From: a virus
Reading direction: 5' to 3' (one strand)
Length of the DNA stretch: 64,000 bases
Virus record (IMG/VR): IMGVR_UViG_3300048694_000674
Coordinates: 77,394-141,393 of that record
Made by a program: the position numbers and the translations under genes
Notes under the pieces: model-generated
Told to the model about the DNA's origin: nothing
The model's input: the letters and a program-made list of their open reading frames with translations, nothing else
Databases searched by the model: none
Shown: piece by piece, positions 4,779 through 46,831 of the stretch
Layout: the number at the start of each line of letters is the position of its first letter
How positions within the stretch are numbered: position 1 is the stretch's first letter

Positions 4779-5492
4779 ATGAAAATAATGATTGCTACGC
4801 CTACGCAAAATAGTATGTGTACTATTAACTATACTGCTTCTATGATTAATCTGTTCAAAGAAGCAGCAAAATATGATGACTTTGAATTAGAATTTTTATA
4901 TGGTACGAATGAAGCTCTAGTAACTCATGCCAGAAATTTATGTGTAAATCTTTTTTTAAAATCAGATGCGACTCATTTGCTTTTTATAGATTCGGATATT
5001 CAATTTCACCCAAGTCAAATTATACAAATGATTAGAACTAAATCTGACTTTGTTTGTGGCATATATCCAAAAAAAAAGATTGATTGGGAAAAGGTAAGAG
5101 TTGCTGCATTACATGGCGTACAGGCTCAACTATTGCAATCACATTCAAACGAATATTTGGTTGTACCTTCTGCTAATACAGAACCACTAGAAAATGGGTT
5201 GGTAGAAATTGATAGAGCAGCTACTGGTATGATGTTGATCAGTAAAACTGTATTTGAAACATTGAAAGATAAGGTGAACGCATTCAATCTAGTTGCGCCA
5301 GTTCAATCCAATATTCAATACGGTCAGGATGAAAAATATTATGAGTTTTTCTATTCTCAAATTGAACCAGAAACTAATTTGTTTCTCAACGAAGATTTTA
5401 GTTTTTGTAAATTGTGGATAGATAATGGTGGTAAGATATACGGCGCACCATGGGTAAAATTGTTTCATGTCGGTAATCATGTTTATGGATGA
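4779..5492 (+). CDS. GT-A fold glycosyltransferase-like protein
   Basis: IMIATP...ARN...THLLFIDSDI (DxD)...ATGMMLI...EDFSFC. Confidence 0.75.
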   Translation: MKIMIATPTQNSMCTINYTASMINLFKEAAKYDDFELEFLYGTNEALVTHARNLCVNLFLKSDATHLLFIDSDIQFHPSQIIQMIRTKSDFVCGIYPKKKIDWEKVRVAALHGVQAQLLQSHSNEYLVVPSANTEPLENGLVEIDRAATGMMLISKTVFETLKDKVNAFNLVAPVQSNIQYGQDEKYYEFFYSQIEPETNLFLNEDFSFCKLWIDNGGKIYGAPWVKLFHVGNHVYG

Positions 5493-21942: not shown

Positions 21943-22197
21943 ATGGATGATAATGTAACTGTACAGGATTTGATTTACCATTCTTATGAACAAAAGCCTA
22001 TTGAGTTTCAAAACACATTTAATACATTAATGTCTGACAAAATTACTGCTGCTATTAATGATAGAAAAATGGAAGTAGCTCAGACAATGTTTAGAGACCA
22101 ACAGGAATATGAAGAAGAAGATCAAGAGGAACAACCTGATACGGAAATAGAATCAGAAACGGATCAAGAGGAAACATCAGATGGCGAAACTACTTAA
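21943..22197 (+). CDS. Acidic prohead core protein (gp67-like)
   Basis: Small, E/D-rich C-terminus, directly after portal gene. Confidence 0.6.
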   Translation: MDDNVTVQDLIYHSYEQKPIEFQNTFNTLMSDKITAAINDRKMEVAQTMFRDQQEYEEEDQEEQPDTEIESETDQEETSDGETT

Positions 22198-23605
22198 AGA
22201 TATTTTAAAACAAGCGCACGACACTATCAAGGGAGTTCGTCCATCCACTACTGTTGATGGCTCCATTGGTAAAGATCCTGGCGTTGATTACGATCCAAAA
22301 GCTGGTGACGAACAAGACTTTGTTGCCAAGCATTCCGTACAGAAATGGGATGACCCGAACGGTAATAGCACTGGCGTATTTACTTCTCAAAAGGGTGAAG
22401 CTCCTTACCAGAAGCAATCCAAAGGTGTTTACGAATCAAAAAAAGATGAGGACACCAAGTGTAATATGTCAGAAGCTGGCTCTTGGTGTCCAATGCACGA
22501 AATGGCTGACTGCTCAAAAATGACCAAGATTAATGAGATTTCAAAATCGACTCTTGGTTCATACATCAAAAAGTCTTCGCAGGATTTGAAAAATATTGAA
22601 GCTGGTCGCGAAAAGAATGCAGGTTATGCAGCGCATGTAAAAACAAATCGCATGCAAACTAATAGAACCAAAGGTATTAATAGAGCTGTAAATAAACTCG
22701 CAAAAGAAGAAGTTGAGCAGATTGATGAGCTTTCTTCTGCTACGTATAAATCTGCAATGCATAAAGCTTCCAACAGAGCTATGTGGGATCCCCAGGGACC
22801 AAAAGGACCAATGTATAAAAAATACAAAACAATGGCACAAAAGTTCCGTGATAAAGGAATGGACCAGGAAAAGAAAGAAAAGGCTTCTATGAAAGAAGAA
22901 GTCGAGCTCGATGAAGTATCAAAGGCAACACTTGGTTCTTATGTAAATAAAGCTGATGATTCTGTGAGAGCATTATCAAGAAAAACTGTTGTTGGTAATG
23001 CTTCACCAGAACAAAAAAAGAAATTCTATGACAATAATGATAGAAAAATCGATAAAAGATTTGATTCGATGGATTTAGCTATCAAAAAGTTATCAGGTAA
23101 AGCCAAAGTAAATGCAAAAGAAGAAGTCGAGCTCGATGAAGTAATTACAAAGAAAACATCAGCTGGCGAAGTTATTTCTGACTTCATTCATTCAAAGAAT
23201 CCTAAGTTTGCTGGTAAGTCAAAAGAAGAACGTAAGCGTATGGCTCTTGGTGCTTATTATTCAAAGCATCCAGAAAAGTCAAAGAGCGTTAAAGAAGATC
23301 TTGCTGTTCCTTTACTCGGTGGTGAACCACCACGTGGTCATTCAGATGAAGCTGCAGAGATGGTAAAGTCAGAGTTGAAAGCTCTTGCTAATAAAGCAAT
23401 GCATCTTATTTCTCAAATGCCAGACTCAATGCATGTCGAGCCATGGATTCAAGCTAAAATTGCACAAGCAAAAGAACATGTCTCAGCTGTTCACGATTAT
23501 ATGATCTATGGCGATCATGATAAGCAAGATGAAAAAGAGCAGATGGACACACCAATGACATTTCCAAATATGTCAGTAGATGTTAATACAGGAAGAAACG
23601 TATGA
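22181..23605 (+). CDS. Modular prohead core/internal head protein with repeated EEVELDE(V/I)S linkers
   Basis: Between gp20 and gp21; repeats INEISKSTLGSY, EEVEQIDELS, EEVELDEVSKATLGSY, EEVELDEVIT. Confidence 0.6.
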   Translation: MAKLLKDILKQAHDTIKGVRPSTTVDGSIGKDPGVDYDPKAGDEQDFVAKHSVQKWDDPNGNSTGVFTSQKGEAPYQKQSKGVYESKKDEDTKCNMSEAGSWCPMHEMADCSKMTKINEISKSTLGSYIKKSSQDLKNIEAGREKNAGYAAHVKTNRMQTNRTKGINRAVNKLAKEEVEQIDELSSATYKSAMHKASNRAMWDPQGPKGPMYKKYKTMAQKFRDKGMDQEKKEKASMKEEVELDEVSKATLGSYVNKADDSVRALSRKTVVGNASPEQKKKFYDNNDRKIDKRFDSMDLAIKKLSGKAKVNAKEEVELDEVITKKTSAGEVISDFIHSKNPKFAGKSKEERKRMALGAYYSKHPEKSKSVKEDLAVPLLGGEPPRGHSDEAAEMVKSELKALANKAMHLISQMPDSMHVEPWIQAKIAQAKEHVSAVHDYMIYGDHDKQDEKEQMDTPMTFPNMSVDVNTGRNV

Positions 23606-42510: not shown

Positions 42511-42700
42511 GAACATAGACAAGTTCATCGAATCTCTTGAAGAGATGATTGATGCTCGTGATGATATGTGGGAAGAGGAAAAGTACTCAAACCATAGGCA
42601 AATGTGGAAGATCAAAGAAGAGCGATACCTTCCTGCCAAGGCAAAGCTTCGGGAAGCGCTCCATGACTTTATTGCTGAGGTAATCGAAGAAGATGTCTAA
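42485..42700 (+). CDS. Hypothetical protein
   Basis: Coupled helical ORF. Confidence 0.55.
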   Translation: MKKYRQKIENIDKFIESLEEMIDARDDMWEEEKYSNHRQMWKIKEERYLPAKAKLREALHDFIAEVIEEDV

Positions 42701-42759
42701 GTTATTGATTTTATTATAGAAAAAAAGTGCTTTACTTATTTCCAAATTTGGCGTATACT
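42698..42759 (+). promoter_or_regulatory. Early promoter with upstream IHF-consensus site
   Basis: TAAGTTATTGATT (rc AATCAA-TAAC-TTA), A-tract, TTTACT-N17-TATACT. Confidence 0.7.
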
Positions 42760-42968: not shown

Positions 42969-43078
42969 TTAGCCCCAGATCTCGTATTTGGGGCTAAGTT
43001 ATTGATTTTATTATAGAAAAAAAAAGTTGAAAAAAAGCGAAAAAAGTGCTTTACTTATATCCAAATCGGCGGTAGAAT
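42969..43078 (+). promoter_or_regulatory. Stem-loop plus IHF site plus early promoter cassette
   Basis: TTAGCCCCAGAT/ATTTGGGGCTAA hairpin, TAAGTTATTGATT, A-tracts, TTTACT-N17-TAGAAT. Confidence 0.7.
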
Positions 43079-43580: not shown

Positions 43581-43742
43581 ATGATGTTTAAGAAATTCGC
43601 TCTTGTTGCTTTGGTTGGTGGTATCGTCGGCGGAACACTGTCCGTAATCCTGCCAGCATCACCGATATCGGCTTTAGCTATCTTCGGTATTTGTTTCGCG
43701 ATTGGTTGGTTCTTCAACGATTTTCTAGATAAAATCGCTTGA
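43581..43742 (+). CDS. Small two-TM membrane protein (53 aa)
   Basis: GAGGAG RBS, hydrophobic open frame. Confidence 0.5.
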   Translation: MMFKKFALVALVGGIVGGTLSVILPASPISALAIFGICFAIGWFFNDFLDKIA

Positions 43743-43767
43743 CTAATATCCAAAACTGCGGTATACT
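43739..43767 (+). promoter_or_regulatory. Early promoter
   Basis: TTGACT-N17-TATACT with GCGG before -10; near-identical downstream sequence to the 52513 copy. Confidence 0.7.
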
Positions 43768-43792: not shown

Positions 43793-44080
43793 ATGAGATT
43801 CGACGATTACGCTTTTGAGCAATGCGCTCGTGCTGTTTATATCATGAACGATTCTGCACGGGAACTCTATGATTCATGGGAAGAACTACGTTCGTTCATG
43901 GAATCTATGGCTTATCAATATGGCGGAAACGCTGGGTGCACTCATTTCGAAACTGGTGGTTTCTGTCTTTCGTTCTCGCGTTCATCGGTTGATCGCGAAG
44001 ATTGGTTTGTAACTGCATCTATTGAGCCATATACAGCTTTGCGATATATTAAATCAATGCAGATTATGCAGCGCATGTAA
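43793..44080 (+). CDS. Early protein whose 3' end is interrupted by the 448-bp insertion
   Basis: Removing 44056-44503 restores ...YIKSVTNVSLEYA* ending in TAATG overlap with next gene. Confidence 0.65.
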   Translation: MRFDDYAFEQCARAVYIMNDSARELYDSWEELRSFMESMAYQYGGNAGCTHFETGGFCLSFSRSSVDREDWFVTASIEPYTALRYIKSMQIMQRM

Positions 44081-44503
44081 AAACAAATCGCATGCAAACT
44101 AATAGAACCAACTGTTGATGGCTCCATTGGTAAAGATCCTGGCGTTGATTACGATCCAAAAGCTGGCGACGAACAAGACTTTGTTGCCAAACATTCCGTA
44201 CAGAAATGGGATGACCCAAATGGTAATGGACCAGATGTGTTTCAAGGCACAAATATAAAGTACTCGTTGGATAAAGAAGCTCATCATGGCTATAAGAAGC
44301 CAGAAGATAAGAGAGTCAACGAATCAAAAAAAGATGAGGAGACCAAGTGTAATATGTCAGAAGCTGGTTCTTGGTGTCCAATGCACGAAATGGCTGACTG
44401 CTCAAAGATGACCAAGATTAACGAGATTTCAAAATCAACTCTTGGTTCATACATCAAAAAGTCTTCGCAGGATTTGAAAAATATTGAAGCTGGTCGCGAA
44501 AAG
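44056..44503 (+). repeat. Circularly permuted, diverged copy of head-gene segment 22250-22671
   Basis: 44056-44111 matches 22616-22671; 44111-44503 matches 22250-22615 apart from a replaced internal block. Confidence 0.9.
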
Positions 44504-44533
44504 GGTGACAAATGTGAGCTTGGAGTATGCCTA

Positions 44534-44746
44534 ATGACTAGCGAATTCTTTTCCAAGGAAAACACATTGGTCGAGTTGAAGGAAGAACTGTATACTCGTT
44601 TGAGTGATGTGCGTCGAGTTATGGCTTTGAAGTCGGGCGACCAAGAAGATTTCTTGGATGGCTTTTACGAAGGTATCAACTGTCGTGCTGCCAATGAAGA
44701 CTTCTGGCTGTCGATGCTACTGGATAAATTGGAGAAATCAGTATGA
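44534..44746 (+). CDS. Hypothetical protein (true start MTSEFF)
   Basis: GGAG RBS and TAATG overlap; the longer ORF 44237 is a by-product of the insertion. Confidence 0.55.
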   Translation: MTSEFFSKENTLVELKEELYTRLSDVRRVMALKSGDQEDFLDGFYEGINCRAANEDFWLSMLLDKLEKSV

Positions 44747-46049: not shown

Positions 46050-46124
46050 CTGCGTGTCGCCTAGCCTGGTGTGGCACTTCGTTTGGGACGAAGAATAACG
46101 GGAGTTCAAATCTCTCCACGCAGA
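46050..46124 (+). tRNA. tRNA-Pro(TGG), CCA not encoded
   Basis: CTTCG-TTTGGGA-CGAAG; followed directly by endonuclease cassette. Confidence 0.88.
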
Positions 46125-46831
46125 CATAAGCGACTCCGATGTATAAATAGTAATGTCAATAAAACTGTTATACATCGGAGTGCAGCTTGTTTTATACGAT
46201 CTATAAAATTACTAACAAAATAAACAATAAATTCTATATTGGGATGCATAAAACCAATAATTTAGATGATGGTTACATGGGTTCTGGTAAGCTTATTAGA
46301 AGAGCCATCTCTAAACATGGAATAGAAAATTTCACTAAAGAAATTCTTCATGTGTTTGATAACGAACAAGATATGAAAAATAAAGAGAAACAGCTTGTTA
46401 TTCTTTCTGAAAACACCTACAATCTTTGTGATGGTGGTAAAGGCGGATTTGGTTACATCAATTCGAATCCAGAAAAGTTTTTAACAGAAAAGAGATTAAA
46501 ATCTCTTTGGACATCAGAAAAAAGAATAAATCGTTGGCGGGAAAAATATAAAAATGATGTAAAATTTAGAAATGATTGTTTAGAAAGATCTAGGCATGCA
46601 TTGAAAAAATATAAAGAAAAATATCCAAAAAGTGCATTTTTTGGGCGAACCCATTCTGAGGAAACAAAAAATAAGATGCGTAAGTCGAAAAATGCTGGTG
46701 AAAAAAATTCACAGTACGGAACTTGTTGGATAACCAATGGTCAAGAAAATAAAAAGATCAAAAAAGAAGAACTTGACAAATTTATCGAATTAGGTTATTA
46801 TAAAGGTAGAATAATTAAATTACAAGAATGA
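46125..46831 (+). mobile_element. SegB-like GIY-YIG endonuclease cassette 1 (CDS 46187-46831, TTG start)
   Basis: YTIYKITN..N.KFYIG.H.T...DGYMGSG; RBS-sequestering hairpin containing TATAAATA. Confidence 0.88.

Follow-up and report, generated by a model that had tools for sequence, protein, structure and literature searches.

A circularly permuted head-cluster gene fragment inserted into a small early ORF of a T4-type phage

Introduction

Two questions about T4-like phages, the origin of their many small orphan genes and the passage of DNA between co-infecting phages, have so far been answered with a single proposed vehicle, the PeSL mini-circle, which needs homology between regulatory cassettes. 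The locus described here touches on both questions, since a piece of a core-module gene appears to have been captured into the hyperplastic region with the topology of a circle and no homology. How could an internal fragment of a head-cluster gene have had its two parts exchanged in order and then been placed, to the base, inside a small early ORF? The DNA that we analysed, hereafter the window, forms the final 64 kb of a linear IMG/VR viral contig of 141,393 bp, and the whole contig is rated 85% complete.

Results

A swapped head-cluster segment inside an early ORF

The target ORF belongs to a series of small ORFs that follows the clamp-loader and regA genes, in what is a typical T4-type hyperplastic early region. 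A 40-nt promoter family is present in four copies (at 42721, 43040, 43729 and 44884), and a 12-bp stem-loop at 42969-42997 stands ahead of one of them. A perfect 30-nt direct repeat (42697-42726 and 42994-43023, 297 nt apart) was also observed ahead of two early-promoter copies; one of its copies overlaps the stem-loop, and the two sites resemble PeSL-type cassettes. The features needed for what follows are these:

22181..23605, + strand: resident modular head-cluster gene, 474 aa
22250..22671, + strand: resident counterpart of the insert, in normal order, within the 474-aa gene
43739..43767, + strand: early promoter of sigma-70 type (TTGACT-17-TATACT) before the target ORF, one of the repeated promoter family
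43793..44080, + strand: target early ORF as now read, 95 aa; homologues 89-108 aa, uninterrupted
44056..44110, + strand: insert segment B, counterpart of 22616-22670, codons N-A-D/G-Y-A-A-H-V-K-T-N-R-M-Q-T-N-R-T of the head-cluster gene
44111..44503, + strand: insert segment A, counterpart of 22250-22615, codons 24-145 of the head-cluster gene, intact in the source frame (frame 2)
44504..44534, + strand: displaced 3' end of the target ORF, G GTG ACA AAT ... GCC TAA (VTNVSLEYA-stop), with a TAATG overlap onto the next gene
44534..44746, + strand: downstream early ORF, 70 aa, with its own GGAG 8 nt before the ATG

Direct reading, a repeat search and self-BLAST of the whole contig agree on an insert of 448 bp (3n+1) at 44056-44503, inside the small early ORF. 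The insert and its resident counterpart form the strongest dispersed repeat of the whole contig (441 bits, E 3e-123 in the self-BLAST of 141 kb), and their match is therefore far beyond chance. Two adjacent pieces of the source are swapped, the order in the insert being B (22616-22671) and then A (22250-22615); an earlier note, made by reading the DNA, had described this arrangement, and both the repeat search and the self-BLAST recover it when the 22-kb and 44-kb loci are compared. What the note called equal is in fact 92-98% identical: 44051/44056-44111 matches 22611/22616-22671 at 95-98% with a single mismatch within the insert, 44111-44242 matches 22250-22381 at 92%, and 44319-44503 matches 22431-22615 at 97%. 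One block is replaced in frame, as had also been claimed, with 31 codons in the insert (44228-44320, GPDVFQGTN...KRVN) versus 22 in the resident gene (22367-22432, STGVF...KGVY).

The B-A joint (44110/44111) contains the one ambiguous A, common to both pieces, that the first reading had reported, and the two integration joints have 0 nt in common, so that microhomology over the three joints amounts to 0-1 nt. The outer ends of the insert correspond to 22616 of the source on the left and 22615 on the right, which is to say to the single source point 22615/22616. In its source frame the insert has no stop and no frameshift. Segment B is read in frame 1 by the source gene and in frame 2 by the host ORF, as S-MQIMQRM-stop. 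Since the frame changes at the joint, from frame 1 in B to frame 2 in A, and A starts only with codon 24 of the gene, the swapped order was not derived from a working gene, which excludes an objection raised in the earlier note, namely that this order might belong to a functional gene.

The target and its empty site

Excision of the 448 bp in silico yields ...AAA TC/G GTG ACA AAT ... GCC TAA, in which the final TAATG again overlaps the next ORF and the target shows no duplication; the ORF is restored in frame, just as predicted. As the locus now stands, the insert swaps the last 9 residues of the target ORF for 7 foreign ones and brings in a new TAA at 44078-44080, giving the early protein the C-terminus SMQIMQRM versus SVTNVSLEYA without the insert.

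Relatives do possess the empty site that the earlier note had proposed to look for. All 18 of the 18 homologues found for the target ORF (51-84% identity, 89-108 aa) are uninterrupted and align with the restored protein without a gap, and the excised window aligns with relatives L019, L026 and L029 over the joint at the nucleotide level without a gap. The V-T-N codons after the joint are in register with those of the relatives (8/9 nt are the same as in L019) and, together with the gapless alignment, this shows that the target neither lost nor gained bases.

The genes that neighbour these homologues vary between contigs, and their order is shuffled relative to L019, L026 and L029; L019, for example, places a homologue of the downstream 70-aa gene upstream of the target (4788-4952). 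Resemblance to the family tail ends after V-T-N, where VSLEYA-stop follows, and marks a second mosaic joint some 10 nt downstream of the insertion (window 44513-44533); the 70-aa gene that follows departs from the family arrangement too. This second joint appears unrelated to the insertion; one so close by would also fit a single complex multi-junction repair event.

Support from other assemblies

The record is a metagenome-assembled viral contig and the insert implies a second head-cluster allele, and both points favour an artefact of assembly or library preparation, in which reads from two co-occurring strains were joined into a chimera. The earlier note had itself named chimeric assembly as a way in which its reading could fail. 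This is countered by a second contig of a different size, JGI 3300044297 Ga0466935_000003 (110,978 bp), which has the same structure and encodes exactly the same 95-aa truncated and 474-aa resident products. Around the head-cluster gene this contig and the window agree at every base over 4.4 kb, and over 6.3 kb around the insert only four clustered SNPs, in tRNA-Pro, separate them. The right junction is also present in an independent Logan assembly, where contig SRR35358207_929553 begins exactly 30 nt inside the insert and then crosses into the target. The 30-nt insert stretch with which it starts is found in the resident gene as well, and a start at such a shared stretch fits the break of a de Bruijn contig at a repeat. 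For 1.6 kb the Logan contig agrees fully with the window; past tRNA-Pro it runs into sequence absent from the window's genome, which points to another, distinguishable strain, and at least two distinguishable strains thus share the right junction. Evidence for the remaining two junctions comes from two near-identical contigs, possibly from one sample. A chimera is further opposed by the joints themselves, none of which falls at a shared k-mer (0-1 nt in common), and by an insertion that respects its target to the base. We consider it very unlikely, on these alignments, that the insertion is an assembly error, and the probability left to a chimeric join is minimal.

Two further searches concerned the immediate surroundings. 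The B-A joint gave no match in an exact-pattern scan of IMG/VR, from which the window's own record may have been withheld. An empty site in a near-identical strain was sought through the neighbouring products: the exact 70-aa downstream product has no database record, and the upstream 117-aa product is known only from the same two contigs.

The three assemblies differ only in the 3' half of tRNA-Pro (46050-46125; window 46099-46125 and beyond; L024, L041). After tRNA-Pro the SRR35358207 strain carries a different ORF (MNREQLKYQ...), absent from the window's genome, so the cassette downstream of tRNA-Pro is polymorphic between strains.

The resident gene and its family

The resident gene lies downstream of a portal gene (Portal_T4) and the gene of an 84-aa gp67-like prohead-type protein, and is followed by an 82-aa ORF, a prohead protease gene (Peptidase_S77) and a scaffold gene (T4_CASP). 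Neither the resident protein nor the target ORF and its neighbours had a match in Pfam, and in PHROGs these matched families of unknown function only, plus 'prohead' for the 84-aa neighbour. The term head gene used in the earlier note accordingly holds for its position in a head-morphogenesis cluster, but Pfam is silent on it and the PHROG match is to a function-unknown family.

Relatives of the resident protein range from 293 to ~760 aa, with conserved N- and C-termini and variable modules between them. Across the family (window 22181-23605; relatives L005-L018, P0021-P0083) the conserved N-terminus reads MAK.LKDILK...GKDPGVDYDPK and the conserved C-terminus ...DTPMTFPNMSVDVNTG.NV, and there is a Cys motif, CNMSEAG.WCPMHEMADC. 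The variable modules are set apart by repeated KEEVE(Q/L)(I/V)DE(L/V) linkers. The prohead protease of T4 cleaves according to the rule L/I-x-E. The I/L-D-E motifs of the linkers are compatible with this rule, and the head-cluster protein may for that reason be a polyprotein of internal head peptides.

A functional donor allele

Outside the replaced block the insert and the resident gene differ at 10 positions over 118 codons, and the claim that these differences are mostly synonymous is borne out, 8 being synonymous and 2 non-synonymous (pS 0.114, pN 0.007, pN/pS 0.06). An 8:2 split has P = 7e-5 if all change were neutral. The middle block of the insert is of the type typical of the family (P0021, L010), and the shorter type of the resident gene occurs in L009. 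The low pN/pS, the intact source frame and the family-typical block together suggest that the donor was a functional allele ~3% diverged, in agreement with the earlier proposal of a copy from a different allele, and that the insertion is young relative to the divergence of donor and resident.

The alternative that a fragment of the resident gene was duplicated in place long ago and then drifted, with no foreign or alternative allele involved, draws on the database searches. Searches of viral contigs, metagenome contigs and a 5.8-billion-protein set, in which both longer and similar-length proteins were considered, turned up nothing closer to the insert than the resident gene, which matches segment A (131 aa) at 80% amino-acid identity and the insert outside the block at 92-98% nucleotide identity. 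On the other hand, neutral drift of the insert after such a duplication, with the resident under selection, should have made about two thirds of the differences non-synonymous, whereas 2/10 are (P = 3e-3). The source frame of the insert has neither stop nor frameshift, and it is the insert, and not the resident, that retains the family-typical block. We therefore hold an in-place duplication to be quite improbable and prefer a distinct, functional donor allele, which could have belonged either to a co-infecting strain or to the lineage's own past, as an earlier allele later replaced by recombination.

A DNA search of GenBank phages gave no relative of either locus, and a protein search gave distant matches only, to Prochlorococcus phage P-TIM68 and Caulobacter phage Cr30. 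The proposal to look for a head gene with the GPDVFQGTN allele was answered in part, in that this type of block is the usual one in relatives (P0021, L010), but the donor allele itself was not among the sequences found.

A candidate route of insertion

The permuted insert has unit length and its ends abut in the source, as expected if a circle recombined once with a linear target. The joints share no homology and leave both partners intact, which argues that the exchange was conservative and illegitimate. The route that we propose would begin with a segment of ~450 bp (codons 24-164) taken from within a functional head-cluster allele ~3% diverged. This segment would then have been closed on itself through 1 shared nt, source-equivalent position 22671 being joined to 22250, to give a small circle or, equivalently, head-to-tail copies. 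A single exchange with the phage genome, reciprocal, conservative, homology-free and of Campbell-type topology, would finally have joined point 22615/22616 of the circle to point 44055/44504 of the target, inside the small early ORF. We think it likely that a ~450-bp circle or a unit-length head-to-tail copy was integrated by one conservative, homology-free crossover; the circle itself we infer from the permutation, the unit length and the intact partners. Its size is feasible, as circles of ~400 bp have been documented in T4-type phages (PMC2839356).

Unit length is also what weighs most against templated repair without a free circle. Here a broken or stalled 3' end at 44055 would have switched to the donor at 22616 and then to 22250, before returning to the target and possibly continuing into the downstream module, in the manner of replication-based, MMBIR/FoSTeS-like repair. 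The replication of T4-type phages depends on recombination, which favours such a process, as does the crowding of three novel joints and a fourth, mosaic joint ~10 nt further on, all within 460 bp. However, synthesis would have had to end precisely one base short of where it had first begun; a chain of template switches, or a random piece of a tandem array, would have exact unit length by chance in ~1 case in 450, unless the template were circular, and joints with 0-1 nt of microhomology are poor substrates for strand-annealing switches. Repair of this kind strikes us as unlikely, and we retain the integration of a circle or unit-length copy as the preferred account.

As to the enzymes, the 141-kb contig (85% complete) gave no match to an integrase, resolvase, reverse transcriptase (RVT_1), topoisomerase II A-subunit, ATP-dependent ligase or Ku. 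With no recombinase encoded on the contig, the work was probably done by host or general break-and-join activities, although a recombinase gene could lie in its missing part. The phage's own topoisomerase or ligase was rejected as the agent, neither having been matched in this 85%-complete contig; their absence from it is also a departure from the T4 core gene set.

Other candidate causes were considered and set aside. Of the four breakpoints, only the two that form the circle closure lie in small hairpin loops; 17.5% of random positions do as well, and the association is not significant. A transposable or site-specific integrating element was rejected, there being no inverted repeats in 20000-46000, no target duplication and no integrase or resolvase match in the contig. 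A diversity-generating retroelement was rejected likewise: the third-position changes are of every kind, transitions and transversions alike, and not confined to adenine, and no RVT_1 match accompanies them in the 85%-complete contig.

A search for further permuted self-duplications, suggested earlier for T4-like genomes at large, returned no second event in the whole contig (self-BLAST) or in five partial relatives. In the contigs of these five relatives, second matches were internal modules of the same head-cluster gene and not ectopic copies. The self-comparison of the contig also brought up a 106-108-nt tandem repeat with 98% identity, outside the window at G000:C1:14286-14499.

Consequences for the early region

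The insertion abolishes the TAATG translational coupling to the next gene, which retains its own ribosome-binding site. Segment A is in frame with the downstream 70-aa ORF, and gene callers extend the latter to a 169-aa ORF from the GTG at 44237. No in-frame ATG, GTG or TTG occurs in segment A before this GTG, which has only a weak GGA upstream, and the 169-aa open frame is thus without a convincing start.

The fragment might nonetheless have been kept because it is useful, either as a silent cassette that donates sequence to the variable block by gene conversion or as the N-terminal part of an early fusion protein, whether the 169-aa ORF (44237-44746) or a shorter form from the ATG of the CNMSEAG motif. 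In favour of this are the openness of segment A in frame with the downstream gene, the 117 and 185 nt of 97% homology that flank the alternative block, the persistence of the fragment in at least two strain variants and the highly modular and variable nature of the head-cluster gene family. Against it, segment A lacks a convincing start site, no relative has such a fusion or ectopic copy, a frame shared by segment A and the downstream gene would arise by chance in 1 case in 3, and a pair of direct repeats spaced 21.9 kb apart around essential genes invites hazardous recombination; the event is moreover too young for intactness to show selection. Retention for use therefore seems very improbable to us. 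The insertion is real, evolutionarily recent and of no evident function, adding ~450 bp of non-coding or accidentally open DNA, and it is probably a harmless or neutral one-off event.

Discussion

What distinguishes this locus is how well it is documented, with an empty site, a resident copy, a foreign-allele signature and several assemblies, although it is a locus and not a system. One could imagine a regular process in T4-like phages, in which sub-genic circles of 0.4-0.5 kb arise anywhere in co-infecting genomes and integrate conservatively and without homology into hyperplastic ORFs, there seeding ORFan sequence and fusion proteins or serving as silent block donors. If true, there would be a general circle route not limited to PeSL cassettes, represented here by the 169-aa open frame or by block swapping in the head-cluster gene through gene conversion. 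A general capture route of this sort rests on a single event, however, which makes the locus illustrative rather than general, and we regard a regular process as a doubtful extension with a low probability.

Searching the literature for permuted ectopic insertion in phages, we found only the PeSL work, on the mini-circles of T4-type phages (Arbiol et al. 2010, PMC2839356; Comeau et al. 2014, PMC4122927). PeSL circles carry whole ORFans, and it is homologous exchange between the promoter/stem-loop cassettes on either side that both forms and re-integrates them (PMC2839356; PMC4122927); the mini-circle assay took core genes without bordering PeSLs as its inverse-PCR negative control (PMC2839356). 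The present case resembles that system in its T4-type phage and in a hyperplastic region with small early ORFs, repeated sigma-70-type promoters and a stem-loop, and also in the idea of small circles as the vehicles between genomes, of ~400 bp there versus the ~450 bp inferred here. Unlike a PeSL circle, the source here is an internal, promoter-less piece of a conserved-module gene: its ends, 22249/22250 and 22670/22671, lie within the coding sequence of a gene of the head (late) module, with no promoter-family copy or terminator there. The joints differ as well, the closure here sharing a single A and the integration joints 0 nt, inside an ORF and ~290 nt downstream of the nearest promoter cassette. 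The features that define the PeSL system, flanking cassettes and homologous joints, are lacking here, and what is shared with it is the type of phage, the type of region and the size class of the circle.

The topology finds its counterpart in Campbell-type illegitimate integration. In bacteria such integration of circles occurs through exchange mediated by gyrase or topoisomerase, and in eukaryotes small circular DNA is known to re-integrate. Shared with it are a permuted insert of unit length, partners that are both intact at two joints and the lack of a target-site duplication. A typical Campbell-type circle is a plasmid or element, whereas here it would be a sub-genic fragment of a homologous allele, in a phage for which no topoisomerase II or ligase of its own was matched. 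Campbell-type illegitimate integration is a known kind of event, and the topology of the insert, as read from its joints, matches it.
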